Assembly: GCA_038046385.1 (NCBI GenBank) | Contig: JBBSWH010000001.1 | Span: 119,211 to 183,210, forward strand | DNA from: Nanobdellota archaeon | Lineage (GTDB): Archaea; Nanobdellota; Nanobdellia; Woesearchaeales; GW2011-AR4 | Reading direction: 5' to 3' | DNA: 64,000 nucleotides | Shown here: positions 14,497 through 63,796 of the stretch, in pieces | How positions within the stretch are numbered: position 1 is the stretch's first letter | Layout of the letters: each line of letters begins with the position of its first letter | Made by a program: the position numbers and the translations under genes | The notes under the pieces: generated by a model | Databases searched by the model: none | What the model was told of the DNA's origin: nothing | Seen by the model: only the letters and a program-made list of their open reading frames with translations

Positions 14497-14645
14497 CGCA
14501 ATGACGAAAACGCATTAACTAATAACATTTAAAAAAAATAATTCAATAAAAAAATATCCATTGATAAAAATAAATTAAAATAAGGTATAATCAAAATCAC
14601 AATAATAAAAAATTAAAAAACAAAATCACAGTGGAGGAAAACAAA

Positions 14646-16520: not shown

Positions 16521-16546
16521 AAAAAGCCCTTAGTTTTATTTTTCGC

Positions 16547-17182
16547 ATGAGCAACCACCACGTTTTCGGATATGCAAGCCTTATACACGAAGGAATCAGA
16601 AATTCACTTAATCTTACCGGAAAGGCTGAAATTGTAGAGGAACTTCCGGGAGTACAGAGAGTGTGGGACCCTCAAATACCAGGCTCAAAAAGGGCAAGGC
16701 TCAATCTTAAAGCAGATAAATATGCCCATACAAATGGAGTGGTGCTGCAAGTTGATGAAGCAGAACTAAGACTTCTTGACGGATTAAACAAAGGATATGC
16801 CCGAGTGCATCTGGAAGACCACATCCACGGAAAAGACAATCACCCCACTTTTCAAAGAAGAGGCATGTCCTCAACAGTTTGGATTTATTTGCCGAATGGG
16901 AACATGAATCCAACAAATCAGGGAACAGCTGAACCCGGCAAATCTGCCGCTGCGCCAGATCCAAACCCTATTGTGCAGACCTATGTTGATCAAGTTGTTA
17001 TAGGCGCTCTTCGTTTAGGCGGGCCGCACTTCGCTTATCATTTTGTCGATGCAACAAAAGGATGGCACCATCCATGGGTTAACAACAGAACCCAATCTAT
17101 TCCAGGTGCCGGGGAAGTTGATGCCGTTTTGGAAAGAATTGTAGGAAAAGAATTCAGAAAAAGAACAAATTTAAAATCATAA
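16547..17182 (+). CDS. Gamma-glutamylcyclotransferase (GGCT/ChaC)-like protein, divergent
   Basis: N-terminal VFGYASL, then NGVVLQV...LRLLD...GY. Confidence 0.6.
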   Translation: MSNHHVFGYASLIHEGIRNSLNLTGKAEIVEELPGVQRVWDPQIPGSKRARLNLKADKYAHTNGVVLQVDEAELRLLDGLNKGYARVHLEDHIHGKDNHPTFQRRGMSSTVWIYLPNGNMNPTNQGTAEPGKSAAAPDPNPIVQTYVDQVVIGALRLGGPHFAYHFVDATKGWHHPWVNNRTQSIPGAGEVDAVLERIVGKEFRKRTNLKS

Positions 17183-17189
17183 TCTTAAA

Positions 17190-17687
17190 ATGAAACTGCC
17201 TTCAAAAGAAGAGTGCCTGAAAATACTGAAAGAAGCAGATGTTCCTGCCAATATTATTGCGCACACTTCAAAAGTCTGCGAGATTGCAGAAAAGATTTCT
17301 GACAGACTGATTAAAAAAAACATTAAAGTAAACAAAAATCTTGTTGCAGCGGCAGCAATGCTGCATGACGTAAAAAAATTAAGCAGGAATGACCATATCA
17401 TTGAAGGCTACAATTACATAAAATCGCTCGGATATCCTGAAGTTGCAGAAGTAATGAGGACACACGGGCTTGTTCATGTTGAGAACGAAGAATTCTTTCC
17501 AAAAACAGTTGAGCAAAAGATAGTTTTTTATGCTGACAAGAGAGCCAATGGCGATAAGCTCGTTTCAGTTGACGAAAGGTTTGAATATATAATGAAAAGA
17601 TACGACAGAATTAAAGAAGTAAGGCGAGAATTGGAGATAACTAAAGATATAGAAAAAGAATTATTGGGAGAAGATACGGAATTATAA
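17190..17687 (+). CDS. HD-domain (HDIG) phosphohydrolase
   Basis: IAHT...LHDV...H...TH...YADKR. Confidence 0.85.
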
Positions 17688-17688
17688 A

Positions 17689-18813
17689 ATGACAAAGGAA
17701 AAAGATTATTACAAAATACTCGGAGTAAGCAAGAATGCCTCAAAGGAAGAGATAAAAACAGCTTACAAGAATCTGGCAAAAAAGTATCATCCCGATATCA
17801 ACAAGGATAAGGATGTTTCTGAAAAGTTCAAGGAAATAAATGAGGCTGCCTCTGTTTTGGGAGATGACCAGAAAAAAGCGCAGTATGACCAGTACGGCTC
17901 TGCAGGAGAGCAATTCGGAGGCGCAGGGGCAGGCGGATTTTCCGGATTTGATTTTTCAGATTTCATGTCAGACGGCGAAGGGTTTGATATGGATGACATG
18001 GTAAGCCGCTTATTTGGCGGAGGATTTGGAGGAAGAGGGAGAACAAGAAGAAAGCAGCGCGGTTCGGATTTAAGATATGACATGGAGATAGAACTGGAAG
18101 ATGCTGCCTTCGGCGCAACAAAAACAATTAATATTCCAATTTCAGAGAAATGCGAAAAATGCGGCGGAACAGGCGCGGAATCAAAATCAGATATTGTGAC
18201 ATGCCACGAATGCGGCGGAAAAGGCACTGCAACAAGCACACAGAGAACGCCGTTTGGGCTTTTTTCAACAACAACAACCTGCAGAAAGTGCAGGGGGCAG
18301 GGAAAATACGTCAAAAACGAATGCAAAGAATGCGGCGGAAACGGAACTGTGCGCAAAAACAGAAAACTGGAGATTAAAATTCCAGCAGGCGCAGAAACAG
18401 GAACACAATTAAGGGTGCAGGGTGCAGGCGAGGCAGGAGAAAAAGGAATATCCTCTGGGGATTTATACATCGTACTTCACGTTAAGGAGCACGAAACATT
18501 CGAAAGGCACGGAAGCGATGTTCACATAAAAATTCCATTATCTTTTACAACAGCAGCTTTAGGCGGGGAAATTGAAGTTCTTACTCTGAGCGGAAAAGCC
18601 ACTTTGAAGATTCCTGCAGGCACGCAGAGCAACACTGTCTTCAGGATGCGCGGGCAGGGAATACCGGAACTGCAAACCCACCATACCGGCGACCAGCATG
18701 TGCAGATTTATATTGTAGTTCCTGAAAAATTATCTAAAAAACAGAAAAAACTGCTTGAGGATTTTGACAAGGAAAACAAAAAGAAAGGGTTTTTAGACGA
18801 TGTTTTTGGCTAA
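17689..18813 (+). CDS. dnaJ: Chaperone DnaJ
   Basis: J domain with HPD, G/F region and four CxxCxGxG repeats. Confidence 0.97.
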
Positions 18814-21581: not shown

Positions 21582-24317
21582 TTATTTAGAATACGCTGCC
21601 TGCATCTTTTCTACCCAAGGTCTCCAGATTTCTTCGGGAACAGTAAACCTGAGGTCTGTGAAATTGCTTCTGAAGTCTATGACTTCTGATCTTACATCTT
21701 CTCCTCTTTCCCCTCTAACAGCAAGCTTGACTGCCTCCACAGTTGCGTCTTCTTTCATTCCAAATCTTGTCATCTCCTGGAACCCCCACCTGTTTCCGCT
21801 TGCCCCCATGAAAAGTATATCGTCGAATAAAGTCGAAGAGCTTGTGATTATATTGTTCGACTCCAACCTTCTTGCAGTGCTTTTGCCTTGGTACTTATCT
21901 GTTCTTGTCAAAACTTGATGGGTATCCGGCATCCTCTTTGTCACTACATCTATTCCCTCGTTCCTAAATGCAGCCCATGCAGATCTAGCATTATTGACAA
22001 CCTGCGGAGCATATTCATGATTAAACATAGCCTCTTCGCGTGCTGCAAAAAGATGAGCAAGCTTTGCTCCAAGATGAGTGTTGCTATGATAAACTAAATG
22101 TCTCCTCAAAACAGCCTGATAAAGAGGGTCATTAAATGGCCTATTAGAAGCAATAAATGTGCTATTTTTTGGACCAAAATTGGTTTTAGCGGTGTATCCT
22201 GCAAAATCTGCTCCGTAAGGATACTTAGACAATCCTCCAATATGTGCTCTGTCTTCAAAAAGAACTGGCCTGTCTGGATTATCTCTTCCGTATAATCTGT
22301 CAAGCATGAGCCTTATTGCTTCCGTTGGCGGCCTGAATGGTATTGCACTTCCGCCAGTTATTATTATGTCTGGTCTGACTCTTACAACCAGTTTTTCCAA
22401 TCCTTCAAGATCATAATCATAAGGAGAATCTCTCCTCATTGGTATGTTATACCATTTTGGCATCCCATGTTCATCATGTTCCAGATAATCTTTTAACCCT
22501 AAAGATGCTTGTGAGCTTATGTGGCCTCCGTCGTTTAATGCCACACTTATTGCAACCAATCCCCGTGGCCTGATTCTTTTTCTATTCACATAATCTTTGG
22601 TTCCGCCAAAAACCATATGATTGTTTATTGTACCAGAGTTTATAATCCCGATTACATTTGCTGCGCCCGTATTTGCTCTTAACTGCGCAAGAAGCAATTC
22701 TTCAACACCAGCCCCTAGACTTCCTTCAGGGGAACCCTTCATCATAAAATCTGTGCCTTGATAATACGCAAAATCTTCTCCAAGCGCCCTTACAATTGAA
22801 TGTTCATTATATCTGTGGGAAGGGTCAAGAGTCATTAGTGCTCTCACAGCAGGAGAAATTGTATTTTCAGAAGCAGTAAAATTAAGCGTTTCAAATTGGC
22901 GCCATCTTGTATTTGCAACAGCGTCGTGAACAAGTGCATCTCCAAGATCACTTATTGTTCCAGGATAAACAGGAACCCTTCTCGGCTCTGCAAGAGGACC
23001 GAATGAGGGTCTTGAGTAAGGAACCCCTCCAAGTAAATTTGTATCAGTCAGTCTAGCATCCAGACCGGCGATTATTTTGTCTTTGTCTCCAACCTGGAAG
23101 ATTATTTCTTTTGTCGGGTCGAATCTTATGTTAGAATCTATCAATGCCATTCCGACTGATCTTTTCATAGAACTGTCCCAGGAATCGGCTGGTTTTGAGT
23201 ATACTCCTTCTCCTTCAAAATGAGAGTAAGGCGCATAAAGTCCAGTTGTAACGACACCGACTTCTTTACCTTCGTAATAAAGTTTCATTCCTGCTCTTAG
23301 CGATCTTTCACCTGATGGAACAACCAATGACCTGATCATTCTTTTAAGAACAAGGTCATCAAGTGTAACACTCTCCCCTCTCTCTATCCTCTCAAAATCT
23401 CTCCTTTGCACTTCAAGAGCTCCCCTACCTATGAATTTTCTGGTCGGGTCTGCAAGATTAACTCCGAATTTCGCTTGCGTCACTGAATGAATCAGCAACT
23501 CATCACTTATCTCGTGTCCATAAAGCGGAAGACCTGCTTCTGTTCTTGCGCCGTCTCTGGATGCCAAGCCTGCAAACATAAGATTATATGGACGTCCTGC
23601 AGCCGCAAGGTCTTCTACGACTTTTGGAGCTTTTTTTGAATCAACTCTTATCTCCATAGCAACTACTTCCCCAGTATATCCGGTCCTGGAGATGCGCATT
23701 GCAGTGCCATCATGATAAATCGTTGAGCCGTAATTTCTTTTTGCCTTGGGAAGCCATCCACTATACCCGGGCATTGATAACAATGAGTTCATTATTAATT
23801 CTGAATTGGGACCTTGCAATGATATCATTGCTTCATCATGAGTCTTGTTTTCTATGGTGACATCTTTAAATCTGTCCTGACTTATTTTTAGGACCCTGTT
23901 TATCCATTTCCAGTCTTTTTCCCTGTTTCCTGCATTGACAACGAGGGTGTATTCATCTTTACCATCAGCAAAAAGGATTGTGTCATCAATTGCACGTCCT
24001 TTAGAGTTTGACAAAAAGCCATAAACAGCTTGCGGACCGATCATCCCTTCATGGTCAAGGACATTTGCATCGCTTGTCAAAAGATATCTCAAGAATTCTT
24101 TTGCATCTTTGCCAGTAAACCTGTACCTACCCATATGGCTTACGTCGAAAAGTGCAGCAGTTTTTCTTACTGCAACCCCTTCCTGAAAAGCATGAGAAAA
24201 CTGAACCGGCATCTCAGTGCCGCCAAAATCTTTTAATGACAATCTTCCCGGTTCTGCATACTTAGAGTAATAGGGATGCAACACAGTCTTCTCTAACCCG
24301 CTACCTTGTTCACTCAA
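21582..24317 (-). CDS. GcvT aminomethyltransferase - serine hydroxymethyltransferase (GlyA)-like fusion
   Basis: GcvT half: FDVSHMG, VVNAGN, SLQGP, SRTGYTGE, RTEAGLPLYGHE. SHMT half: ASEN, YYQG, GGHIS, DRAHIGGL, TAKTNFGP (PLP Lys), EMTRFGM. TTG start with GGTGG Shine-Dalgarno. Confidence 0.85.
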   Translation of the reverse strand: MSEQGSGLEKTVLHPYYSKYAEPGRLSLKDFGGTEMPVQFSHAFQEGVAVRKTAALFDVSHMGRYRFTGKDAKEFLRYLLTSDANVLDHEGMIGPQAVYGFLSNSKGRAIDDTILFADGKDEYTLVVNAGNREKDWKWINRVLKISQDRFKDVTIENKTHDEAMISLQGPNSELIMNSLLSMPGYSGWLPKAKRNYGSTIYHDGTAMRISRTGYTGEVVAMEIRVDSKKAPKVVEDLAAAGRPYNLMFAGLASRDGARTEAGLPLYGHEISDELLIHSVTQAKFGVNLADPTRKFIGRGALEVQRRDFERIERGESVTLDDLVLKRMIRSLVVPSGERSLRAGMKLYYEGKEVGVVTTGLYAPYSHFEGEGVYSKPADSWDSSMKRSVGMALIDSNIRFDPTKEIIFQVGDKDKIIAGLDARLTDTNLLGGVPYSRPSFGPLAEPRRVPVYPGTISDLGDALVHDAVANTRWRQFETLNFTASENTISPAVRALMTLDPSHRYNEHSIVRALGEDFAYYQGTDFMMKGSPEGSLGAGVEELLLAQLRANTGAANVIGIINSGTINNHMVFGGTKDYVNRKRIRPRGLVAISVALNDGGHISSQASLGLKDYLEHDEHGMPKWYNIPMRRDSPYDYDLEGLEKLVVRVRPDIIITGGSAIPFRPPTEAIRLMLDRLYGRDNPDRPVLFEDRAHIGGLSKYPYGADFAGYTAKTNFGPKNSTFIASNRPFNDPLYQAVLRRHLVYHSNTHLGAKLAHLFAAREEAMFNHEYAPQVVNNARSAWAAFRNEGIDVVTKRMPDTHQVLTRTDKYQGKSTARRLESNNIITSSSTLFDDILFMGASGNRWGFQEMTRFGMKEDATVEAVKLAVRGERGEDVRSEVIDFRSNFTDLRFTVPEEIWRPWVEKMQAAYSK

Positions 24318-31626: not shown

Positions 31627-31698
31627 TTATTTTCCACCTTGTATTTGCCGAGCCTGTATCTATTAATTAAGCTTTTGCTTTTGTTTGATATCATAAAA

Positions 31699-31789
31699 TG
31701 GGGCTGCCCGGATTTGAACCGGGGCCGGACCCAGATTGGCAACTCAGTTGTCCCCAAGGGCCAATTCTACCTAGCTATACTACAGCCCC
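31699..31789 (-). tRNA. tRNA-Pro(GGG) with 18-nt intron at 37/38 (31734-31751)
   Basis: Acceptor GGGGCTG/CAGCCCC; T arm CCCGG-TTCAAAT-CCGGG; anticodon stem GGCCC/GGGTC; canonical BHB with TTGG/CCAA central helix and GGA and TCT bulges. Confidence 0.92.
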
Positions 31790-31878
31790 AATATGAAGAA
31801 GCAATCTGTTTCTTATTTTTAAATCTAATGCAAAGGTTTTAAAATAGGGTTTATTAACCTACTTATTAGGAGTATCAA

Positions 31879-38447: not shown

Positions 38448-40091
38448 TTAGTAGCCCCCGTCTTCTCCGCCCATGCCTCCCATTCCTGGCATTCCCGGCG
38501 GCATCTTTCCGCCTCCGCCTTTTGAGCCGGATGATGCAATCACATCATCGATTCTCAAAATCATGGTTGCGACTTCTGAAGCGCTCGAAACAGCCTGTGT
38601 CTTTATCTTAAGAGGCTCAATAACTCCTTTCTTCCACGAGTCCATTATCTTGCCTGTGAAGACGTCAACACCAGCCCATTTCTGCTTCTTTGCGTGAGCT
38701 GCTTTCAATTCCGTCATGATATCAATCGGGTCTAATCCAGCATTCTCTATCAGCGTTCTTGGAATTACTTCCATTGCATCAGCAAATGACTGCATTGCTA
38801 ATTGTTCTCTTCCTGAAAGAGATTCAGCATGTTTTCTTAACTGCATTGCAAGTTCAACTTCAGGAGCGCCTGCGCCTCCAACAACCTTGCCGTCTTTCAA
38901 AGCAGCTGAAACATCTCCAACTGCATCTGTCAAAGCCCTTTCAATTTCGTTTGTAACGTGCTCTGTTCCCCCTCTTACTAGGATTGTAACTGCTTTTGGG
39001 TTCTTGCACTCGACTATGAACGTAAATTGTTCATCTCCAAGTTTTCTTTCCTCAACAGCGCCTGCAAATCCAAGGTCGTCTTTGTTCATGTCATGCAGAT
39101 TGTTAACAACTTTTGCGCCGGTTGCCTTTGCAATTTTTTTCATGTCAGAATCAGACACTCTGCGTACAGCATAGATTCCTTTTTTTGCAAGGAAGTGCTG
39201 CGCAACATCATCAATTCCTTTTTGGCATATCAAAACATTTGCGCCTGATGCTGCAATCTGGTCAACCATTGTCCTTAACATCTTTTCTTCCTGATCCAGG
39301 AATGCCTGCAGCTGGTCCGGTGATGTTATCTCGATGCTTGCCTCAATTTCAGTTTTCTTGATTTCGATTTCCTTGTCAAGAAGCGCGACTTTTGCATTCT
39401 TAACGAGCCTTGGCATGCTTGAATGGACTTTCTCCTTGTCGATTGCAATCCCCCTGATTAATTCAGAATCTTCAATAGCCCCGCCTGATCTTTTCTCAAT
39501 TTTGATATTGTCAAGGTCTACTGTTCCGTCTGCCTCTGCAACCAGCTTTACAGCTTTTACAGCAAGGTCTGACAGTCTTTCTTTTGCATACTCTGCGCCT
39601 TTTCCGGTCATTGCAGTCATTGCTATCTGCCTTAAAACAGTTTCATCCTTTGAAGTTATGGTCTCAGCCATATCATTAAGAATTTCCTGCGCTTTTTCAG
39701 CAGCCAATCTGTAGCCTCTTGCGATTACAGCAGGATGCACATTTTGATCTAAAAGTTCTTCTGCGTTTTTCAACAGCTCTCCTGCTAAAACAACAGCTGT
39801 TGTTGTTCCGTCTCCGACAACATCTTCCTGCGTCTTTGCGATTTCAACAATCATCTTTGCAGATGGATGCTCGATTTGCATTTCCTGAAGAATTGTAACT
39901 CCGTCGTTTGTAACAGTAACATCTCCCATCGAATCAACAATCATCTTGTCCATTCCCTTTGGGCCTAAAGTTGTTCTGACAGTTTCAGCAACAAGCTTTG
40001 CTGCCATTATGTTTGACCTTTGCGCATCTCTTCCCATGCTTCTCTGTGTGCCTTCCGGCAGAATAAATATAGGTTGTATCTGGTTTGCCAT
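38448..40091 (-). CDS. ths: Thermosome (group II chaperonin) subunit
   Basis: [24 protein letters not shown] and a GGM-type tail. Confidence 0.97.
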
Positions 40092-44687: not shown

Positions 44688-47030
44688 ATGGGGGCTGTAG
44701 ACGTAGACACAATCAACATAAAAAGTATGTCAGACAGCGAATTGTCTGCTTTCCTGAAAAAGAACGCTATTTCTTTGAGTCTTTACGAAGCAAAACGCGT
44801 TGCAGAATTGATAGGGAGAAACCCAACAATAACAGAACTGTATATATATAATACTCAATGGAGTGAACACTCTTCTTACAAGAGCAGCAGGCCTGTGCTA
44901 AAAGCACTACTGCCAACACAGGCTCCAAACGTAATTCTTGGCCCTGTTGAGGATTCAGGAATTATAGAATTAGGGTATATTAATGATGAACGATATGGGG
45001 TTGTCATTTCACATGAAAGCCATAACCATCCAAGCCAAGTTGTTCCATATGAAGGCGCAGCAACCGGTGTTGGGGGATGCATACGTGATGTTTTATGCAT
45101 GGGCGCAAAAGTAATTGCAACAGCAGACCCATTAAGATTTGGGAATCCAAAAGGAAAGAACAAAAACAAGGTTAAGTATGTTGCAAATGAAGTAATAAAC
45201 GGCATCGCAGGCTACGGAGATGCAGTTGGCATTCCAAACATAAGCGGAGATGTTTATTTTAATGATTCTTTTGATGACAATTGCTTGGTTAATGTAATTA
45301 CTCTTGGAGTTGTAAAAGAAAAAGATATAATTCACAGCTATGCTCCAAAAAATGCAGAAGGATATGACATTATAATAGTGGGAAAGGCAACAGACAATTC
45401 CGGCTTTGGCGGAGCAGCATTTGCATCTGTTATTTTGGACGATAAAGACAGAGACATCAATAGAGGGGCTGTGCAAGTTCCAGACCCTTTCCTAAAAAAT
45501 GTGATAATACGCGCTTCTTATGCTGTGTTTGAAGAAGCAAAGAAAAGAAACATCGTTCTTGGATTCAAGGATATGGGCGCAGGCGGGATAATGTGCAGCA
45601 CATCAGAATTATGCGTTGATGGAAATTACGGCGCAGATATTGACTTAAGCAAAGTAAACGTTTCAATGAACATTCCTTCTTACATGATTGCCTGCTCTGA
45701 AACACAGGAAAGATTTACTTATATTTGTCCCCCTTCTTTTACAAAAACACTTTTGAAAATATACAACGAGGATTTTGAGCTTCCGCAAATGAGCGTCAAT
45801 GCTGGCGCTTATGTAATTGGCAAAGTAACAAAAAATGATGATTACATTTTGAGGCACGAGGGAAAAATCGTGTGCAACTCTCCTGTAAAAGTCGTTACAC
45901 AGGGAATAAAATATGAGCGCGAGAAAAAAGCGCCAAAAAGAAACTTTACAGAACCTGATTTAAAAGAGCCAAAAGATTATGCTAATGCAGTCCTTTCTGT
46001 TTTAAGGCATCCAAACGTTGCAAGCAAAGCCAAGGCATACAAGCATTACGATACAAGCGTTATGGGCAATGCAGTGATTGAAACAGGATACGCAGATGCC
46101 GGCGTGATGAAAGTCGTTGATAATAGTTCTTTTGCAGTTGCGTTAAAGGCAGACTGCAATCCAAGATACTGCAAAATTGACCCATACTGGGGCGCTGTGA
46201 ATGCAACAGCAGAGTCAATGAGGAATGTTGCAGCTGTCGGAGCTATTCCAAGCGCATTAACAGACTGCCTGAATTACGGAAATCCGGAAAAGCCAGAATC
46301 ATTTTATGATTTTTACGAAGGCGTTAGGGGAATAGCAGATGCGGCAAAGAACATCTATTACAAGGGCACAAAACACCCAGTTCCCATAGTTTCTGGGAAT
46401 GTAAGCTTCTACAACGAATCGGCTTCAGGAAAATCAATTGACCCATCACCTATAGTTGCATGCATTGGCGTAATGAAAGACTACAGCAAAGCAATCACAA
46501 TGAAGATAAAAAAAATCGGAACAACGTTGGTTCTTGTCGGAGAAAGAAAAGACGAATTAGGCGGGTCTGTTTATTACAATGTCAACAAGGAAGACGGCGC
46601 AAATGTGCCGATAATAGATTTTGAAATTGAAAGAAACACGATTTATGCGGTTATTGATGCAATAAACTCAAATTTATTATTGGCGTGCCACGACATATCT
46701 GACGGGGGAATTGCAACGACAATATCTGAAATGGTGCTTGGCGGAGATGCAGACGGGGAGATTGGCGCAGAAATAGATTTTGGATTTTCAAGCTTAAGAA
46801 ATGATAAATCCCTTTTTTCAGAATCATCTGGTTTTGTGATGGAAGTTGATGATGCAAATGTTGAGAGAGTTTTGAAACTGCTTAAATTCTACAAATTAAA
46901 TCCAATAACACTTGGAAAAACAGGCGGAGATAAACTGATGATTAAAAACAAAGGAAAGAAAATTGCAGGTGTTCCTATTTCAAAAATGAAAGAAGCGTGG
47001 ACAACCGGCTTTGCGGAGGCTTTGGAGTAA
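44688..47030 (+). CDS. purL: Phosphoribosylformylglycinamidine synthase subunit PurL
   Basis: WSEHSSYKSS, ESHNHPS, GAATGVGG, DMGAGG, SETQER and HDISDGG motifs. Confidence 0.96.
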   Translation: MGAVDVDTINIKSMSDSELSAFLKKNAISLSLYEAKRVAELIGRNPTITELYIYNTQWSEHSSYKSSRPVLKALLPTQAPNVILGPVEDSGIIELGYINDERYGVVISHESHNHPSQVVPYEGAATGVGGCIRDVLCMGAKVIATADPLRFGNPKGKNKNKVKYVANEVINGIAGYGDAVGIPNISGDVYFNDSFDDNCLVNVITLGVVKEKDIIHSYAPKNAEGYDIIIVGKATDNSGFGGAAFASVILDDKDRDINRGAVQVPDPFLKNVIIRASYAVFEEAKKRNIVLGFKDMGAGGIMCSTSELCVDGNYGADIDLSKVNVSMNIPSYMIACSETQERFTYICPPSFTKTLLKIYNEDFELPQMSVNAGAYVIGKVTKNDDYILRHEGKIVCNSPVKVVTQGIKYEREKKAPKRNFTEPDLKEPKDYANAVLSVLRHPNVASKAKAYKHYDTSVMGNAVIETGYADAGVMKVVDNSSFAVALKADCNPRYCKIDPYWGAVNATAESMRNVAAVGAIPSALTDCLNYGNPEKPESFYDFYEGVRGIADAAKNIYYKGTKHPVPIVSGNVSFYNESASGKSIDPSPIVACIGVMKDYSKAITMKIKKIGTTLVLVGERKDELGGSVYYNVNKEDGANVPIIDFEIERNTIYAVIDAINSNLLLACHDISDGGIATTISEMVLGGDADGEIGAEIDFGFSSLRNDKSLFSESSGFVMEVDDANVERVLKLLKFYKLNPITLGKTGGDKLMIKNKGKKIAGVPISKMKEAWTTGFAEALE

Positions 47031-47031
47031 A

Positions 47032-47595
47032 ATGAAAGAATTAGAATTTCAAGACCTAATGACTAAGCTAATTAATGAGGGTTTAGACAACTCTAAATTT
47101 ATTTGTAAAAGAGGGGAATCGGTTTTATACGAATTAAAAGTAGATGAAGAACTTAATATTGTTGGCAACCCGAAAGACCCTAAAAGGGGGCAGGGAGCCT
47201 TTGAAACTGATGTTACAATATTTGCAATTAAAAAAAATCTGCAAATACCTTTTATAGTAATTGAAGTAAAAGAGCAGATAACCTCACATGATATAATCAC
47301 TTACAGCAATAAAGCCTCTAGGCATAAGATGGTTTATCCTTATTTAAGGTATGGTCTTGTTTCTTACGATTTGGATACAATACCCAATAGGTTTTTTAAA
47401 CATAATGAAGCGATAGATTTTTTCTTAGCTGTTAAGGAATACTCAAAAAACGAAGAAAAATTAAAAAATATTTTGTTAGAATTAATAAAGAATGAACTTA
47501 AGATTTTTGAAGAATTGCAGAAAATTCTGCATGATAAAAATAAACCAAATTTTTACCAAAGTATACCATCATTAAAAAATTTTGAACACGAATAA
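47032..47595 (+). CDS. PD-(D/E)XK nuclease-like protein inserted in the pur operon
   Basis: FETDVTIF...IVIEVK; AT-rich. Confidence 0.6.
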   Translation: MKELEFQDLMTKLINEGLDNSKFICKRGESVLYELKVDEELNIVGNPKDPKRGQGAFETDVTIFAIKKNLQIPFIVIEVKEQITSHDIITYSNKASRHKMVYPYLRYGLVSYDLDTIPNRFFKHNEAIDFFLAVKEYSKNEEKLKNILLELIKNELKIFEELQKILHDKNKPNFYQSIPSLKNFEHE

Positions 47596-47596
47596 A

Positions 47597-48415
47597 ATGC
47601 CAAACAAAAAGCCAAACATTGCGGTCGTTTACTTTCCCGGCAACAACTGCGAAGAGGAATCTTTGAAAGCAGCTCTTGCAGCAGGAATGGACGGGAAGAT
47701 TGTAAGATGGAATGAAAGAAAAGGAATTGAAAAATACGACGGATATATCATTCCGGGCGGCTGGGGATATGAAGACAGAATACGCGCAGGAGTTATCGCG
47801 GCAAAAGATCCTGTTTTTGCAATCATAAAAAAAGAGTCTGAAAAAGGAAAACCAGTTCTTGGTATTTGCAACGGCGCGCAGGCTTTGGTGGAATGCGGCA
47901 TGATTCCTGGATTAAAAAACAAAGTCGAGATGGCACTTGCGCCAAATATCAATCCTTTTGTGAGTGGATATTACTGCACATGGGTTCATTTGAAAAACAC
48001 AGAAAATCAGTCAAGATGTGCTTTCACAAAATTTACAGGAAAAGATGAAGTTATCCCGGTCCCGATTGCGCACGGAGAAGGGAGATTTACGACAAACGAC
48101 AAGGATTTGATGAAAGAACTTGTTAAAAACAAGCAGATAATCTTCAAATATTCTACTAAAGACGGTAAAATAGACAATAAGTTTCCAACAAACCCAAACG
48201 GAGCAATGCTTAACATTGCAGCAGTCTGCAACAAGAAAGGAAATGTGATGGCAATCATGCCTCATCCTGAACGTGCAACATTCATAAGGCAATTGCCCTA
48301 CATTACGAGCTTGAAAAACAACGCAGCAGGCAAGCTTGCAGAAATGGAAAAGCCGGCTCCGGCAATGAAATTATTTGATTCGATGAAGAAATATATCGAA
48401 GAGGAATTATTATAA
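47597..48415 (+). CDS. purQ: PurQ glutaminase subunit
   Basis: FPGNNC, GICNG, AHGEG and MPHPER motifs. Confidence 0.95.
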   Translation: MPNKKPNIAVVYFPGNNCEEESLKAALAAGMDGKIVRWNERKGIEKYDGYIIPGGWGYEDRIRAGVIAAKDPVFAIIKKESEKGKPVLGICNGAQALVECGMIPGLKNKVEMALAPNINPFVSGYYCTWVHLKNTENQSRCAFTKFTGKDEVIPVPIAHGEGRFTTNDKDLMKELVKNKQIIFKYSTKDGKIDNKFPTNPNGAMLNIAAVCNKKGNVMAIMPHPERATFIRQLPYITSLKNNAAGKLAEMEKPAPAMKLFDSMKKYIEEELL

Positions 48416-48441
48416 TAATGGGCGAGCTGGTTAATAAATAA

Positions 48442-49701
48442 TTATTTGAACTGATAATTTCTGGGTATGAACACATGACCATTAGGGGACAGTGTGAATC
48501 TCCTTGCAACGTCTTCTTCATGATAAATTCCTATTCTTGTGTTGTCTGGAATGTGTACTCCTTTATCTACAACTCCTTTGTTAATTCTTACATTTCTCCC
48601 GGTTCCATTGTTTCCCATAAATATTGTTTCCGTCATTTCTCCATGATCTCCGACTTCAGTGTTATACCCAACAATACAATCGTCAAGCCTGCTTTTTTTC
48701 CCAATTGATACACCATTTGCAAGTACAGATCCGGTTACATCTCCTGCGTTAACAATTTGTTTTCCATGGGATTCGTCAAAAGTCACTATGGGCCAGCCAG
48801 GATTTTCAAGGCGCAATGGAGGATGTGTGCCGGTCAGGTCAAGATTAGCCTCAACAAATTGATCAAGTGTCCCTACATCTCTCCAATAACCGGTTGTTTT
48901 AACTTGATTAGGGGTGTTTCTTGTATAATCATACATCCTGACTTTCCTGCCTTCCCTTAAATAATGAGGAATTACATCAAAACCAAAATCATGAACTGAG
49001 TACAAACTTGGGTTGGCCCTAACCAAATCCTTATTTTCTTCATCTGCTGTTCTTTTCTTTGCATCAACTGTTAAGGCAGTAACAAGAGAATTTCTATTAA
49101 ATACATAATTCCCCATAGATGCCCAGCAGAAATTTTCATTTCCGGGAATAGGCGCGGGATCCGATGGCTTTTCCTGAAATCCTATAACATTGCCATTTTC
49201 ATCGGCAACAAGAACTCCAAAAGTGTTGGCAGCCAAGTCTCTCCTGACTGGCATGGCGGCTATAGTTAAATCTGATTTACTATCGAGATGGAACTGCTTC
49301 ATTTGAGAAATGTCCATTAAGTATACATGATCACCCGCAAATACAGAAACCAGTTGTGGCTTTTGTGATGTTATTAATCCTAAATTTCTATACACAGCAT
49401 CAGCAGTTCCTAAGTAATGGCCATGTTCAGGGTGGACTACTCTGATAAATTCAGCACCTTCCTGCTCAAAAACAGGTTTCCAGGCGTGTTCTATATGCCT
49501 CTCTAAAGAAGCTGGCTTGTATTGCGCCACAACTACTATATTTCTGCTGCCGGAATTATAATGATTGTTAAGGGGAAAATCTATTATCCTCCATTTTCCT
49601 CCAAAAGGGCTTGCTGGCTTTGCCCTATCTTGGGTTATGGGGAATAACCTTTTTCCCTGGCCACCTGCTAAAATGATATCGAGAGATGTTACCTGTTTCA
49701 T
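48442..49701 (-). CDS. glgC: Glucose-1-phosphate adenylyltransferase (ADP-glucose pyrophosphorylase)
   Basis: LAGGQGKRL, RAKPA.PFGG, GTADAV, GDHVY, FQEKP, SMGNY, DFG and YWRDVGT motifs. Confidence 0.9.
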   Translation of the reverse strand: MKQVTSLDIILAGGQGKRLFPITQDRAKPASPFGGKWRIIDFPLNNHYNSGSRNIVVVAQYKPASLERHIEHAWKPVFEQEGAEFIRVVHPEHGHYLGTADAVYRNLGLITSQKPQLVSVFAGDHVYLMDISQMKQFHLDSKSDLTIAAMPVRRDLAANTFGVLVADENGNVIGFQEKPSDPAPIPGNENFCWASMGNYVFNRNSLVTALTVDAKKRTADEENKDLVRANPSLYSVHDFGFDVIPHYLREGRKVRMYDYTRNTPNQVKTTGYWRDVGTLDQFVEANLDLTGTHPPLRLENPGWPIVTFDESHGKQIVNAGDVTGSVLANGVSIGKKSRLDDCIVGYNTEVGDHGEMTETIFMGNNGTGRNVRINKGVVDKGVHIPDNTRIGIYHEEDVARRFTLSPNGHVFIPRNYQFK

Positions 49702-49819
49702 AGGTCTAGTTAAGATTATTGCTTTAAAAGCCTTTCTGTTTATAACTACTAAATAGAAGCAACATATACATATTTCTTAGAAATATTTATTTGCGCATTA
49801 ATCCATAATTATTTAAATA

Positions 49820-49885
49820 AAATTATTTGACTTGATGAATAGGCATATTGAAGATGAAGCGCTATAATACTAGGCGAGCTGGTTA
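49820..49885 (+). repeat. Diverged duplicate of the purQ 3' end (48368-48433)
   Basis: Ungapped 66-bp alignment, 52/66 identical by manual count; KLFDLMNRHIEDEAL* versus KLFDSMKKYIEEELL*. Confidence 0.85.
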
Positions 49886-49925
49886 TGGTGCCAGCGAGCA
49901 CAATCTTTTGTCCGAAGGACGGAAA
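49876..49925 (+). other. Two-hairpin structured element (copy 2), followed by an A-rich spacer
   Basis: GA-GCTGGT...GCCAGC-GAG...TTGTCCGAAGGACGGAAA. Confidence 0.7.
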
Positions 49926-50066
49926 GAAAATTTCAATAAAATAAAATCACAAAAACAATAACGAAACTCAATAACGAAAAACACATTAACGAAAATTAAA
50001 TTTAAAATAACAATTATTAAAATAAATAACAATTAAAAATTAAATAAAAATATAAAATAACCTAAA

Positions 50067-50498
50067 ATGAAGACAATCGAACTCATCGTAAGCCTGAAAG
50101 TTCCTGACACGACTGCAATCACAGCGCTGCAGACTTTGCAAAAACTGGGATTTAAAATAAAATCCTTAAGAAGGGCAAACTACTACAAATTCTCAGTTGA
50201 GGGAGACTCTTCAAAATTCAAGGAGGAAATAAAAAAAGTGGACATTCTTGTCAACGCAAACAAGCACTTATGTGTTTTTTCAATGGAAAAAAGCAATGAT
50301 TCAAGAATACTTGTCAAAGACATAGATGATTCAAATGAAGCTTTGTTGTCAACTTTAAATCACAGGCTAGGAATAAAAGGCATAAAATCAATTGAAAAAG
50401 GCACTTTGTGGAGCATGGACGCAAACAAGGTTGTTGCAGAAAAAGCAGCGAAAGAATTATTAGCAAATGAGCACTATCAGGAATTCAAGGTGATGTAA
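50067..50498 (+). CDS. purS: PurS-like protein, double length (tandem domains)
   Basis: IVSLKVPD...TLQKLG...ILVNAN, followed by a second unit ending LLANEHYQEF; pur operon context. Confidence 0.7.
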   Translation: MKTIELIVSLKVPDTTAITALQTLQKLGFKIKSLRRANYYKFSVEGDSSKFKEEIKKVDILVNANKHLCVFSMEKSNDSRILVKDIDDSNEALLSTLNHRLGIKGIKSIEKGTLWSMDANKVVAEKAAKELLANEHYQEFKVM

Positions 50499-51266
50499 AT
50501 GAACAAAGTTTTGGTTATATTCGGCTCAAAGACAGACGAAAAAGTCTACAATGAAATAGTTTCAACATTAAAAAAGCTAAAAGTTCCTTATGAGCTAAGA
50601 GTCAGTTCGGCGCACAAGACTCCGGATGATGTTGAAAAAACACTTGAAAATGATTATTCCGTTGTGATTGCAGGCGCAGGACTGGCTGCGCATTTGCCGG
50701 GCGTTGTTGCAGCAAAAGTAATGCGGCCTGTAATTGGAGTGCCTTGTGAAGGAAACTACCAGGGATTGGATTCTTTGCTTTCAATTGCGCAAATGCCTCC
50801 GGGAATTCCTGTTCTTGCTGTTGGAGTCGGACAGGCAAAAACTGCTGCTGAAAACTGCGCAAAGATGATGAAAAAATATGAAGCAGTAACATTAATAGGA
50901 GATAGGGACAACGAAGCTGTAAAAAAATGTGTTGAGACATTAAAAAAGTTTGATGTCGCCTATGTCTTTGAAGACAAGCCAAATCCTGCAACAGTCAACA
51001 TCGAATTCACTTATTTTGACGAGCCTGTTGAAAAGAAAGACGAGCTTGTAATATACTGCCCATTATTGCTTTCAAAAGACGATAGGGCAGAAGCTTCAAT
51101 TAATTTTCTGAAGCATACAAACCACGGATTGTGGGTTGGACTGAATAATGGCGTTAATGCCGCAGTTGCTGCAGTTGAAATTCTAAATATGGACAACAGC
51201 TTTGAAGAGCTTCTTTCCATGTACAGAAGGGAAATGGGAAAGAAAGTTCTGGATGCAAACAAATGA
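50499..51266 (+). CDS. purE: PurE (N5-CAIR mutase/AIR carboxylase) with degenerate second PurE-like domain
   Basis: GSKTD, SAHKTP, GAGLAAHLPG, PVIGVP and QMPPGIPV motifs; C-terminal half ends NGVNAAVAAVEIL. Confidence 0.88.
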   Translation: MNKVLVIFGSKTDEKVYNEIVSTLKKLKVPYELRVSSAHKTPDDVEKTLENDYSVVIAGAGLAAHLPGVVAAKVMRPVIGVPCEGNYQGLDSLLSIAQMPPGIPVLAVGVGQAKTAAENCAKMMKKYEAVTLIGDRDNEAVKKCVETLKKFDVAYVFEDKPNPATVNIEFTYFDEPVEKKDELVIYCPLLLSKDDRAEASINFLKHTNHGLWVGLNNGVNAAVAAVEILNMDNSFEELLSMYRREMGKKVLDANK

Positions 51267-51838
51267 ATGGGACGGAGAGTAATCTGATAACTCAGATTGC
51301 AGAATGGTTTGCAAATGAAGACAACCTCGACGGACTTCAAAGACAAGCAGAGAGGATAGTCCCGGGATACGGAGAAGATGTGGTTCATCAAACTTATGCC
51401 AAAGCTTATGACTATTTAGTTAGACATCCGGATTTTGTTCTTAGAAAATCAATAAATCGGTGGGTTTATGCCTTAGCCAGGAACGCAGCATTAGATATTC
51501 TAAAACACGATAAATCTGTGAGGCCTTATCAAGATTATATTGCCTCTTTGTTTTATGGTGAAGACCCAACACCTTTTCTTGACACAACTTTAGGAGAGAC
51601 AGAAGAAGTGACTTTAGCGCGCATAGTTAATGAAGAGGTATCCAGACTGCCGCAGATTAATCGTGAAGTTATAATATTACATTATTATGAAAGAAAGGGA
51701 TACCCAGATATAGCAACATTGCTAGGCATAGGAATAAGTGCAGCAAAACAGAGGGCATTTAAAGGAAGGGGCATATTAAGCGAAGCAATTCTTTCCCGCG
51801 TTCAAAACATCCCTTATTGTTTAGAATCTGCAGCGTGA
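51263..51838 (+). CDS. Sigma-70 family ECF-type sigma factor-like protein
   Basis: Region 2 EDVVHQTYAKAY...RWVYALARNAALDILK; region 4 LPQINREVIILHYYE..GYPDIA.LLGI.ISAAKQRAFKGR. Confidence 0.8.
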   Translation: MNGTESNLITQIAEWFANEDNLDGLQRQAERIVPGYGEDVVHQTYAKAYDYLVRHPDFVLRKSINRWVYALARNAALDILKHDKSVRPYQDYIASLFYGEDPTPFLDTTLGETEEVTLARIVNEEVSRLPQINREVIILHYYERKGYPDIATLLGIGISAAKQRAFKGRGILSEAILSRVQNIPYCLESAA

Positions 51839-51844
51839 TTGAAA

Positions 51845-52813
51845 ATGATAGACGACAAAACAATAAAAAATCAGTTGAAATACACATTAGAGGAAACAGA
51901 TTTCCCTCAGCTGGGGAAGAAATACAAGGGAAAAGTAAGAGATGTTTATGCTGCAGAAGACAGGATTTTTCTGATTGCAACTGACAGGCAGTCTGCTTTT
52001 GACAGGAACCTTGCAAACATCCCTTTCAAAGGCCAGGTACTGACGCAGACGTCTGCATTCTGGTTTGAAAAAACAAAAGATATTGTCCAAAACCATGTTA
52101 TAAGCATTCCAGACCCAAATGTAGTTGTGTGCAAACAACTAAAGGTATTTCCTGTTGAATTTGTTATAAGGGGGTATATAACCGGCGTGACAAGCACTGC
52201 AGCATGGACCGCGTATGAAAAGGGGGAAAGAAATTTTTGCGGAAATATCCTGCCGGAAGGAATGAGAAAGAACCAGAAATTTGACAATCCAATAATAACA
52301 CCAACAACAAAATCAACAGAGCACGATGAAAAGATATCCGCAGAAGAGATTATCAGCCGCGGCCTTATGACAAAGAAGCAGTGGGATTTTGTTGCAGAAA
52401 AAGCATTCAGGCTTTTTGAAAGGGGAACAGAAATATCGGCAAAAAACGGGCTTATCCTTGTGGACACAAAATATGAATTCGGCTATGATGATAAAGGGAG
52501 TATCTTCCTTATAGACGAGATACACACGCCTGATTCTTCAAGGTTCTGGATAAAAGAGAATTATAAAGAAAGGTTTGCAAAAGGCGAAGAGCCGGACAAT
52601 ATCGATAAGGAATTTCTAAGGCTCTGGTTCAAGCAGAATTGCGACCCCTATAAAGACAAGGTGCTTCCAGAAGCCCCTGAAGAACTGGTTATTGAGCTGA
52701 GCAAAAGGTACATGATGCTTTTTGAAATGATAACCGGCAAAATCTTTGAGACAAAGAATGAAGATGTTTCTGAAAGGATAAAAAATAATCTTAAGAAAGC
52801 TGGATTCTTTTAA
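51845..52813 (+). CDS. purC: SAICAR synthetase
   Basis: GKVRDVY, TDRQSAFD, RGYITG, LVDTKYEFG and DEIHTPDSSRFW motifs. Confidence 0.95.
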   Translation: MIDDKTIKNQLKYTLEETDFPQLGKKYKGKVRDVYAAEDRIFLIATDRQSAFDRNLANIPFKGQVLTQTSAFWFEKTKDIVQNHVISIPDPNVVVCKQLKVFPVEFVIRGYITGVTSTAAWTAYEKGERNFCGNILPEGMRKNQKFDNPIITPTTKSTEHDEKISAEEIISRGLMTKKQWDFVAEKAFRLFERGTEISAKNGLILVDTKYEFGYDDKGSIFLIDEIHTPDSSRFWIKENYKERFAKGEEPDNIDKEFLRLWFKQNCDPYKDKVLPEAPEELVIELSKRYMMLFEMITGKIFETKNEDVSERIKNNLKKAGFF

Positions 52814-62725: not shown

Positions 62726-63796
62726 TTGATATCTCATAAAAAATACATGGAGCTTGCGCTTAAGCTTGCTGAAAAAGGTCGTGGAACCACGAGCCCAAAC
62801 CCGATGGTGGGCTGCCTAATTGTCAAGCGCGGCAGGATTGTTGGAAAAGGATTCCACAAAAAAGCAGGCTGCGAGCATGCTGAAGTTCTTGCAATTGAGT
62901 CTGCAGGAAAGAAAACAGCGAATTCTACAATGTATGTAACTTTGGAGCCATGCTCTCACTGGGGAAAAACACCACCGTGCACTGAAAAGATTGTAGAAGC
63001 CGGTGTCAGAGAAGTAATCATAGGGATGAAAGACCCAAATCCGCTTGTTGAAGGTTTCAGAGAGCTGAAATTTCGCGGATTGAAGACAAAAATAGGAATT
63101 CTCGAAGAAGAAGCAAAGAAACTGAATGAAGCTTATATCAAATATATGAAGACAAAGAAGCCTTTTGTAATATTAAAAGTTGCAATGAGCCTTGACGGAA
63201 AAATTGCAACATCCAAAGGAGATTCAAAGTATATCACGAGCAAGGAAGCAAGGACTTATGTTCACGAGATAAGAAGCAGCGTTGATGCAGTAATGGTCGG
63301 CCTTAACACCGTTTTGAATGACAATCCTGAATTAACTGTGAGGCATGTTGAGGGGAAAGATCCATTGAAAATAGTTGTTGACAGCCAGCTTAAGATACCG
63401 AAAAACTGCAACCTGATGAAAGAGCCTTCAAAACTGATAATTGCCACAACAAACAAGGCATCAAAAAAAGAAATAATAAAATTCGAACAAAAGGGAGTCA
63501 GGATAATCATAACAAAAGCCAAGAAAGGGATGGTTGACCTAAACGATTTGATGAAGCAGTTGGGAAAGCACGAGATAATGAGCATAATGATGGAAGGGGG
63601 CTCCCAGCTGAACAGCTCTGCAATCAAAGATGGCATTGTTGACAAAGTAATAATATTCACGGCTCCAAAAATAATAGGAAATGGAATTGGTGCAATCGGA
63701 AACCTCGGAATTACAAAAATAAACAAAGCTATTCCACTAAAAGACCACACTTTCAGGAAGATAGGAAAAGATCTCCTTGTTGAAGGGTATCTATAG
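62726..63796 (+). CDS. ribD: Bifunctional riboflavin deaminase/reductase RibD
   Basis: PNPMVG, HAE, TLEPCSH.GKTPPC, SLDGKIA and EGG motifs. Confidence 0.96.
   Translation: MISHKKYMELALKLAEKGRGTTSPNPMVGCLIVKRGRIVGKGFHKKAGCEHAEVLAIESAGKKTANSTMYVTLEPCSHWGKTPPCTEKIVEAGVREVIIGMKDPNPLVEGFRELKFRGLKTKIGILEEEAKKLNEAYIKYMKTKKPFVILKVAMSLDGKIATSKGDSKYITSKEARTYVHEIRSSVDAVMVGLNTVLNDNPELTVRHVEGKDPLKIVVDSQLKIPKNCNLMKEPSKLIIATTNKASKKEIIKFEQKGVRIIITKAKKGMVDLNDLMKQLGKHEIMSIMMEGGSQLNSSAIKDGIVDKVIIFTAPKIIGNGIGAIGNLGITKINKAIPLKDHTFRKIGKDLLVEGYL

Follow-up and report, generated by a model that had tools for sequence, protein, structure and literature searches.

Between the purine genes purE and purC of a groundwater Woesearchaeota genome lies an intact gene whose 191-aa product is a two-domain sigma-70/ECF homologue, with a similarity to bacterial sigma factors far beyond chance. 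The gene is a near-orphan from a very rare ECF subfamily, and the slot that it occupies varies in content among related genomes. Our best explanation, which we put forward tentatively, is that a lateral ECF-type sigma-like gene entered this slot and has been kept as a helix-turn-helix (HTH) DNA-binding regulator. The gene, which is very divergent for the ECF type, would have been acquired ultimately from the bacterial ECF pool and lodged between purE and purC as species-specific cargo, sharing a transcript with the purine genes and probably coupled to their translation. Its product would then act as a small, sequence-specific regulator that binds DNA through the sigma4 recognition helix and possibly also through sigma2. 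DNA binding, the regulator role and an incidental purine context are the parts of this explanation that we infer, whereas the analysis itself establishes the homology, the predicted fold, the intact frame, the genuine locus, the near-orphan distribution and the variable slot. The features of the locus are listed in the table below, numbered from the start of the window, by which we mean the whole stretch of 64,000 nucleotides that was analysed.

Table. Positions of the sigma-like gene, its predicted domains and its neighbours in the window.
Feature	Position	Strand	Basis or remark
AT-rich leader 5' of purS	49702..50066	.	GC 0.30-0.33
purS-like, first gene of the purS-purE-sigma-purC string	50067..50498	+	PurS 29.5 bits
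purE (AIR carboxylase/mutase), upstream neighbour	50499..51266	+	AIRC 160.9 bits; TIGR01162 147 bits
ATGA start/stop overlap with purE	51263..51266	+	read off the sequence
Sigma-70/ECF-like gene	51263..51838	+	intact ORF, ATG start, TGA end, 191 aa
Sigma2-like domain, residues about 5-97, four helices	51275..51553	+	model, SigW/AlgU alignment
Sigma4-like HTH domain, residues about 108-181	51584..51805	+	Sigma70_r4_2, model
purC (SAICAR synthetase), downstream neighbour	51845..52813	+	SAICAR_synt 242.1 bits; NF009251 456.5 bits

A first-pass annotation of this DNA had described the gene as ECF sigma factor-like, and profile searches bear this out. The Pfam family Sigma70_r4_2 matched residues 124-169 (nt 51632-51769) with an E-value of 9.1e-10 and 38.5 bits, against a cut-off of 25.7. 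Matches at E<=1 were found to 68 NCBIfam families, the best 25 of which were all sigma factors; TIGR02985 ranked first (E-value of 8.1e-13), and whole-length ECF models reached E-values of 1e-10 to 1e-13. The sigma70-ECF model TIGR02937 aligned residues 26-175 to positions 15-164 of its 165 (E-value of 1e-10), and its score of 41.5 bits fell 1.4 bits short of the cut-off of 42.9. No sigma model exceeded its curated NCBIfam cut-off, the subfamily and equivalog models remaining far under theirs. Searching 1.84 billion proteins with phmmer gave 1742 matches at E<=1e-3. The annotation had further called both regions 2 and 4 recognisable and suggested HMM searches for each. This held for region 4, which Pfam detected above its cut-off, but Sigma70_r2 (PF04542) had no match at E<=1 in either the protein or the whole genome. 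Region 2 was recognised only via the whole-length ECF models, the predicted fold and a pairwise alignment to the solved SigW structure (E-value of 1.5e-6, residues 37-174).

The AlphaFold2 model (mean pLDDT of 87.2) comprises eight helices in two helical domains separated by a disordered linker at residues 100-106, a predicted sigma2-linker-sigma4 fold without regions 1.1 and 3. All 20 Foldseek matches in the PDB at E<=0.001 were ECF sigma factors or integrative sigma models, and the best were ECF sigmas with a probability of 1.00. Structural matches included SigW of B. subtilis (5wuq), AlgU of P. aeruginosa (8z6g, 6in7) and RpoE of E. coli (1or7). The helices of the sigma2-like domain span residues 5-17, 19-32, 37-54 and 64-97 and were aligned to regions 2.1-2.4 of SigW and AlgU; those of the sigma4-like domain span residues 108-128, 131-142, 147-154 and 158-181. 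In both its domain order and its length of about 190 aa, the protein resembles the bacterial ECF (group 4) sigmas.

At the residue level, the sigma4 HTH core is kept (L129, P130, R134, L139, Y147, I150, A151, L154, G155, K162, R164 and R169), as in bacterial ECF sigmas. Consensus residues D39, W67, N74 and D78 are also kept in sigma2, where the changes are Q42 to H, E43 to Q and F45 to Y, together with a substitution of R81. These four substitutions set the protein apart from bacterial ECF sigmas, as do its scores under the NCBIfam sigma cut-offs, the negative Sigma70_r2 search and a shortened first sigma2 helix that bears a W-F motif specific to the subfamily (W15-F16..N21..L25). Counted over 62 ECF consensus columns, 35 are kept, compared with 41.7 +/- 5.6 (range 28-52) in 69 other aligned ECFs; the protein is therefore divergent but within the ECF range. 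In the three subfamily members, position Q42 has become H, H and N, and E43 has become Q, G and Q. We take these positions to lie in the core-binding helix of sigma region 2.2 that contacts the bacterial core in E. coli. On the strength of the alignment, their replacement would fit a loss of bacterial core binding, and would fit plain drift equally well.

The gene sits between its neighbours as the annotation had described, with an ATGA overlap at purE, a stop 6 nt ahead of the purC start, and flanks that match AIRC and SAICAR_synt. The purC ATG at 51845 is conserved in relatives, whose translated N-termini line up with that of purC here, while the ORF list offers a TTG at 51839 as an alternative start. 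The purS-purE order also recurs in relatives. The overlap implies co-transcription of purE and the sigma-like gene, and the latter is probably translationally coupled to purE, judging from the arrangement of the reading frames. The leader upstream of purS is presumed to hold the archaeal promoter for the string; it gave no Rfam match to a riboswitch or other RNA at E<=1.

We compared the purE-purC junction across 25 loci of the same genus. The gap ranges from -4 to 1280 nt, with seven loci at <=40 nt, eight at 79-271 nt, two at 356-404 nt and eight at >=566 nt. Where inserts could be classified, they encode PIN proteins (two loci), a ParE toxin (one locus) and GAPDH (one locus). Four further ORFs have no family at E<=0.01, namely those of three loci and a second ORF beside PIN in locus L012, and another has only a sub-cut-off match to DUF6515. 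Because the slot carries unrelated cargo in congeners, the purine context of the sigma-like gene is probably incidental. A place in the operon does not imply a purine-linked role, and we judge a purine-specific regulatory function unlikely.

The toxin modules raise another reading, in which the gene was the regulator of a cassette (mobile, defence or toxin-antitoxin-like) that formerly filled the slot and has otherwise been lost. PIN and ParE modules do occupy the same slot in congeners, and defence islands in bacteria are known to be under the control of ECF sigmas (PMC11506125). Against this, the gene fills the slot exactly, neither a further cargo gene nor a repeat or integrase lies beside it, and no relative was found on viral contigs. 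We consider a lost cassette improbable. A phage origin of the gene was also considered and dropped, the phage search having returned three weak matches at 24-31% identity.

A gene of bacterial type on an archaeal contig may also reflect an assembly or binning artefact, in which a bacterial fragment was mis-joined; the annotation had named a chimera as grounds for refuting its claim. Contigs from an independent study cross both junctions. In run X4 (study P2), record 11 spans 50976-51376 and bridges the purE-sigma junction with 0 mismatches, and record 13 spans 51570-52239 and bridges the sigma-purC junction, also with 0 mismatches; the latter junction is bridged again by run X3 record 7 and run X8 record 18. 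The arrangement is therefore not chimeric. The gene shares 4 nt with purE and lies directly against purC, its GC of 0.398 is close to the genome value of 0.38, and the same 183-kb contig carries a thermosome gene within the window (817.5 bits). The purE product is 70-80% identical to those of MAGs titled Woesearchaeota or Nanoarchaeota; among 36 loci with purE relatives, 35 have archaeal titles and 21 are titled Woesearchaeota, Nanoarchaeota or Nanoarchaeia. Nothing was found in favour of an artefact, whose likelihood we regard as negligible, and the view that the gene is integral to an archaeal contig is upheld.

Within this lineage, the gene is isolated. The protein was not found in any of 40 relatives searched with it (24 from the same genus and 16 from the same order), and the purE-purC gaps of 29 same-genus purC loci contain no relics of it, all tblastn matches having E>=4. 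A subfamily profile run against 400 other genomes of the order gave only generic ECF-level matches, with 20 genomes at E<=1e-6 and a top score of 65 bits, versus 320 for the protein itself. No match reached the N-terminal motif, so these genomes yielded no subfamily member. Among 1.84 billion representatives searched with HMMER, the only clear relative is P0002, a metagenomic protein of 189 aa with 40% identity (E-value of 1.3e-27). It shares a similar length, the N-terminal residues W15, F16, N21 and L25, and the tail Q181..L187-E188. P0003, from the same search, is a weaker candidate for the subfamily; the two are encoded on ENA contigs of 1582 bp (P0002) and 1254 bp (P0003). In a word-index search of about 5.8 billion clustered proteins, P0002 and the query each matched only themselves. 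No relative was found on genome, metagenome or viral contigs searched with alignment A2, nor on metagenome contigs searched with P0002.

A quick IQ-TREE phylogeny of 88 rows placed the query and P0002 as sisters (SH-aLRT 97), joined next by P0054 (96). Four of 20 short DPANN forms were left out of this tree, L104, L110 and L116 as non-ECF by eye and L114 as truncated. The query+P0002 group and its union with P0054 were the only supported groupings, 43 of 85 branches being unresolved; P0003 fell outside these groups, and no donor could be named among the 88 rows. Five of the 28 relatives' clusters that we looked up bear organism names, and all five are bacterial (Alicyclobacillus, Elusimicrobiota, Bacillota, Planctomycetota and Clostridia). 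Neighbours in a protein atlas are bacterial or phage sigma clusters. As the 40%-identical orthologue retains both length and termini, the subfamily appears to be under constraint, although this apparent purifying selection may have taken place in bacteria and not in archaea.

This sporadic presence also fits a dispensable passenger. The main rival to our explanation is a neutral or nearly neutral one, a recently captured bacterial ECF gene that is read through from the pur operon, lacks a function in the archaeon and has yet to decay. The gene is a singleton both among the 40 relatives and, at the subfamily level, among the 400 genomes of the order, in a slot whose cargo in congeners is unrelated and often selfish. 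Its GC3 is at the 6th percentile of the genome's ORFs, and the genome contains neither an anti-sigma factor nor a bacterial polymerase that we could detect as a partner. On the other hand, the 191-codon reading frame is intact and its fold confidently predicted, and overall GC and codon index (23rd percentile) are near native. The ATGA coupling and the tight packing, without leftover intergenic DNA, suggest long residence, and the orthologue indicates that the subfamily itself is constrained. We regard a neutral passenger as rather unlikely, and retain the HTH regulator as the preferred reading.

The transcription machinery found in the genome is archaeal. TBP and TFB genes are both present, and the single RpoA' candidate is archaeal (1219 bits). 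No bacterial polymerase subunit scored above its cut-off, the rpoA model for the alpha subunit reaching 18 bits against 227.8, and zf-HC2 anti-sigma domains had no match at E<=0.1 in this genome, which is 85% complete. Since only an archaeal RNA polymerase, TBP and TFB are encoded, the protein is most likely not a polymerase subunit. ECF sigmas are usually, though not universally, co-transcribed with an anti-sigma factor. Here, unlike in bacterial ECF systems, no anti-sigma gene adjoins the sigma-like gene, both of whose neighbours are purine genes, and the genome is archaeal.

Two readings would nonetheless tie the protein to a polymerase. In the first, it docks on the archaeal enzyme, for example on the RpoA' clamp coiled-coil, as a sigma-like factor alongside TBP and TFB. 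The RpoA' clamp coiled-coil and the beta' clamp helices of bacteria are homologues, and the translation places the former here at residues 261-309, in the corresponding position. Sigma genes are moreover very common in the phylum, with TIGR02937 above cut-off in 164 of 401 genomes, while bacterial beta' was above cut-off in none of five near-complete sigma-bearing genomes. Since sigma genes are very common without bacterial beta', selection seems to favour some use of them that is independent of polymerase or dependent on the archaeal one. However, the RpoD-like family is widespread and the present gene an orphan, and two presumed core-contact positions of region 2.2 are substituted. We know of no precedent for such docking and found none in the literature searched. 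When sigma2 (residues 1-100; alignment A3) was predicted in complex with residues 225-360 of RpoA', its clamp segment (alignment A4), the score was 0.13 against a mark of 0.32; in a run without controls, this weighs neither for nor against docking. We give this docking little credence for the present protein. The broader proposal, that Woesearchaeota sigma-family proteins, the present one among them, have been domesticated, either by docking on the RpoA' coiled-coil or by recruiting the TBP/TFB polymerase to -35/-10-like operators, strikes us as very improbable; if true, it would mean a sigma-type specificity factor at work on a eukaryote-like polymerase.

In the second, the protein is a genuine sigma for the bacterial RNA polymerase of a host, prey or partner cell, one of the possibilities raised by the annotation. 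All organism-named relatives among the nearest clusters are bacterial, the atlas neighbours are bacterial or phage sigma clusters, and most ECF consensus residues are kept in sigma4 and in the -10-recognition helix. Yet the N-terminus is hydrophilic, without an evident signal peptide or export feature, the gene has no associated delivery system, and we saw no sign of a bacterial host or prey. The region-2.2 substitutions, whose functional meaning we presume, also speak against it. We hold this reading to be extremely improbable.

In the regulator reading, which we find more likely, the protein would act like the many bacterial-type HTH regulators in archaea. HTH regulators with sigma-70 region-4 or LuxR-type domains are described in archaea (PMC5413776), and the sigma4-like HTH domain resembles them. 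In these proteins the region-4-like HTH occurs without sigma2, often with GAF, PAS or receiver domains, whereas the present protein adds a full sigma2. Sigma70_r4_2 also matched in all four archaeal genomes that served as controls. The sigma-like domain of PhyR (PDB 2lfw) was among the profile matches. PhyR keeps the ECF sigma2-sigma4 fold for a non-polymerase job, mimicking a sigma factor towards its anti-sigma factor. Unlike PhyR with its receiver domain, the present protein consists of the two sigma domains only, and we detected no anti-sigma factor.

Sigma-70-family genes in DPANN archaea, especially Woesearchaeota, are already in print as family fam00359 (Castelle et al. 2021, PMC8204110), so the novelty implied by the annotation does not hold. 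The present gene is like these in lying on a genuine DPANN contig, in a genome with TBP, TFB and an archaeal RNA polymerase, and in having no anti-sigma factor. It differs from the phylum's abundant type, which in the best 30 loci is RpoD-like, with regions 1.2, 2, 3 and 4 placed C-terminally in long ORFs; the present protein is a short, two-domain ECF form. It has no detectable similarity to the sigma-like genes of the 40 relatives, and its scores against 20 sampled DPANN ECF-like proteins were <=34.9 bits.

The locus thus adds a clean, artefact-free ECF-type example in an archaeon, and capture in a recurrent cargo slot of the purine operon should guarantee its expression without a promoter of its own. 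Archaeal polymerases are not known to use sigma factors, so every intact archaeal sigma gene poses the question, raised in 2021, of what role it has without its polymerase. At 191 aa and without a partner, the protein is a compact candidate for testing what DPANN sigma-like proteins bind, be it DNA, archaeal RNA polymerase or bacterial RNA polymerase.

The first-pass annotation had described the ORF between purE and purC as an ECF sigma factor-like gene, and profile searches, an alignment to a solved sigma factor and the predicted fold confirmed this. Of the two Pfam models it proposed for checking the assignment, Sigma70_r4_2 matched residues 124–169 (38.5 bits against a gathering score of 25.7, E 9.1e-10), whereas Sigma70_r2 had no match at E ≤ 1. 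Region 2 is divergent, and was seen in a pairwise alignment to the solved SigW (E 1.5e-6, residues 37–174). Sixty-eight NCBIfam models matched at E ≤ 1, the best 25 of which were all sigma factors. Positions 15–164 of the 165 in the sigma70-ECF superfamily model TIGR02937 aligned with residues 26–175, scoring 41.5 bits, 1.4 bits short of the cut-off. The AlphaFold2 model (mean pLDDT 87.2) predicts a confidently folded sigma2–sigma4 protein, with a low-confidence linker between two helical domains, and every Foldseek match to it at E ≤ 0.001 was an ECF sigma factor or an integrative sigma model. We defined 62 conserved columns from 69 aligned ECF-like proteins; the sigma-like protein keeps 35 of these, including D39, W67, N74, D78 and most of the sigma4 HTH core, while Q42, E43, F45 and R81 are replaced. 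The other aligned proteins keep 41.7 ± 5.6 (range 28–52).

The gene is intact, native-like in composition and tightly packed. Its ATG overlaps the purE TGA in an ATGA at 51263–51266, as read from the sequence, and purC starts at the ATG at 51845, 6 nt past its stop. We preferred this purC start to the TTG at 51839 chosen by the ORF caller because the N-termini of purC in relatives align with the ATG. The upstream neighbour purE (AIRC, 160.9 bits) is preceded by purS and, further upstream, by purL and purQ; purC lies downstream (SAICAR_synt, 242.1 bits; NF009251, 456.5 bits). The GC content of the sigma-like gene (0.398) equals that of the genome, and its codon index and GC3 fall in the 23rd and 6th percentiles of the genome's long ORFs.

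That the gene is integral to an archaeal contig, as first proposed, is borne out by a thermosome gene on the same contig and by the genome itself (1.28 Mb, 85% complete), which carries TBP, TFB and one copy of archaeal RpoA' (1219 bits), the sole candidate. The neighbouring purE is 56–81% identical to 36 loci of public genomes, whose titles are Woesearchaeota, Nanoarchaeota or Nanoarchaeia (21), other archaeal (14) or gammaproteobacterial (1). The stretch is present in groundwater runs of several studies. In run X4 of an independent study, Logan contigs cross both the purE–sigma junction (record 11, 50976–51376) and the sigma–purC junction (record 13, 51570–52239) without mismatch, and the latter is also bridged in two further runs. 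A chimeric assembly, which the first-pass annotation had marked for checking, and mis-binning are excluded by these independent contigs, the thermosome gene and the genome-like GC.

Several other features were recorded alongside the sigma-like gene (see table). Besides the archaeal thermosome, the contig encodes DnaK (896.6 bits), DnaJ (434.6 bits) and a bifunctional RibD (397.3 bits) of bacterial type, in keeping with reports that Woesearchaeota have taken up many bacterial genes. On contig C4 of the genome, rpoA' (892 aa) has an rpoA''-like ORF (405 aa, with a trigger-loop motif) upstream of it and is followed by L30e-, NusA- and S12-like ORFs. Other genomes of the order have A' then A'', and a gene-order swap is possible. 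The 910-aa ORF combines an aminomethyltransferase part (GCV_T, 199.8 bits) with an SHMT-like part (40 bits over residues 459–860), a predicted and unusual one-carbon-metabolism fusion.

Features of the window and of the rpoA locus (L067)
Feature	Positions	Strand	Evidence or remark
Sigma-like ORF, 191 aa	51263–51838	+	ORF listing; ATG start, TGA ends at 51838
Thermosome gene	38448–40088		817.5 bits; same contig as sigma-like gene
DnaK, DnaJ and RibD, with thermosome	14631–18813, 38448–40088, 62726–63796		Profile scores
194-aa ORF between purL and purQ	47011–47595		Pfam search, no family
Sugar-nucleotidyltransferase gene between purQ and purS	48442–49701		Opposite orientation to pur genes
Probable intron-containing archaeal tRNA, 93 nt	31698–31790	-	ARAGORN, without assignable anticodon; Rfam 39.8 bits
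910-aa ORF, GCV_T N-terminal and SHMT-like C-terminal part	21582–24317	-	Profile scores
rpoA''-like ORF and rpoA'	L067, 4200–5417 and 1489–4167	-	Contig C4 of the same genome

Sigma-70-class genes have been reported in DPANN genomes as "particularly prevalent in Woesearchaeota"; mis-binning was excluded, no anti-sigma factors were found and the mechanism was left open (Castelle et al. 2021, PMC8204110). Our searches agree with this: among 401 genomes of the phylum, TIGR02937 had a match at E ≤ 1e-5 in 230 and exceeded its cut-off in 164. The unpublished genomes G379, G292, G293 and G440 are counted here; no claim depends on them alone. The best 30 matches sat at the C-terminus of long ORFs, often with variable N-terminal extensions, and the six that we read were RpoD-like. 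Such RpoD-like proteins are widespread in the phylum (e.g. loci L042, L044 and L061). Unlike these proteins, which have canonical regions 1.2, 2, 3 and 4, the purE–purC protein is of the ECF type. Core-binding and −10 motifs are strongly conserved in the RpoD-like proteins of the phylum, without a bacterial polymerase. We found no later work in the literature searched on the role of DPANN sigma-70 proteins.

The bacterial alpha model, whose cut-off is 227.8 bits, scored 18 bits in the 85%-complete genome, where no zf-HC2 anti-sigma domain was found either, and bacterial beta' exceeded its cut-off in none of five near-complete sigma-bearing genomes.

The protein is rare. It was not found at E ≤ 1e-3 in 40 relatives, of which 24 belong to its genus and 16 to its order, and nothing but the protein itself came back from a word-index search across 5.8 billion clusters. 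Searching 1.84 billion representatives with HMMER yielded 1742 matches at E ≤ 1e-3, with one close relative, the metagenomic protein P0002, a distant orthologue of similar length (189 against 191 aa; 40% identity, E 1.3e-27) and itself a singleton in the word-index search. The other matches were generic ECF sigmas at roughly 30–36% identity, and the organism names found for five of 28 clusters looked up were all bacterial. A weaker candidate, P0003 (188 aa, 31–32% identity), shares an unusual N-terminal W-F..N..L motif with P0002 and the sigma-like protein, and these two also have a C-terminal tail in common. Both relatives are on short contigs. When 400 other genomes of the order were searched with a profile of the three members, 20 matched at E ≤ 1e-6, a tally that includes the unpublished G524, with a best score of 65 bits against 320 for self; these matches were at generic ECF level and none extended to the N-terminal motif. 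No further member turned up when GTDB genomes, JGI metagenomes and viral contigs were scanned. In a poorly resolved tree, the protein paired with P0002 (SH-aLRT 97) and fell outside 16 sampled ECF-like proteins of its own phylum.

We found purC in 33 of 40 same-genus genomes. The 25 same-genus loci holding both genes have purE–purC gaps of −4 to 1280 nt (≤40 nt, n = 7; 79–271 nt, n = 8; 356–404 nt, n = 2; ≥566 nt, n = 8). Inserts in the large gaps encode a PIN-domain toxin (L012, L035), a ParE/YafQ-type toxin (L028) or GAPDH (L023). Others lack a credible Pfam family: four ORFs, in L026, L032 and L024 and beside the PIN gene of L012, had no match at E ≤ 0.01, and the L029 insert matched only DUF6515, under the cut-off. 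The junction is a recurrent insertion slot in this Woesearchaeota genus. As this cargo is unrelated and the same-genus gaps searched held no relics of the sigma-like gene, that gene seems to have been captured at a permissive and well-expressed site, instead of owing its position to a functional link with purine synthesis. The first-pass interpretation is partly supported: its reading of a sigma homologue at a genuine archaeal locus stands.

The pur cluster (44688–50498) is also broken at two more places, between purL and purQ and between purQ and purS; purQ, purS and purE are contiguous in relatives (L010, L015, L030). A GC-rich island (49850–49925) lies within a very AT-rich leader 5' of purS and matched no Rfam family at E ≤ 1.

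Given the selfish company in the slot and the orphan distribution, the main rival to a regulatory role is a functionless passenger, an explanation that we hold to be rather unlikely. It is improbable that the gene is what is left of a mobile or defence cassette. Residues aligned to the bacterial core-binding helix, at positions that we take to be bacterial core-binding sites, are changed in all three subfamily members. We see little chance that the protein acts directly on the archaeal RNA polymerase, and action of the protein on a bacterial RNA polymerase appears very improbable. We tentatively propose that it would be an exapted HTH DNA-binding regulator. We rate this role likeliest because the archaeal polymerase is the only one available, because the putative core-binding positions are altered in all three subfamily members and because sigma4-type HTH domains occur in archaeal regulators, as described in PMC5413776. 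DPANN sigma-like genes as a kind are already in print; new here are a rare ECF-type subfamily and its apparent capture in a slot of the purine operon that repeatedly takes up cargo.
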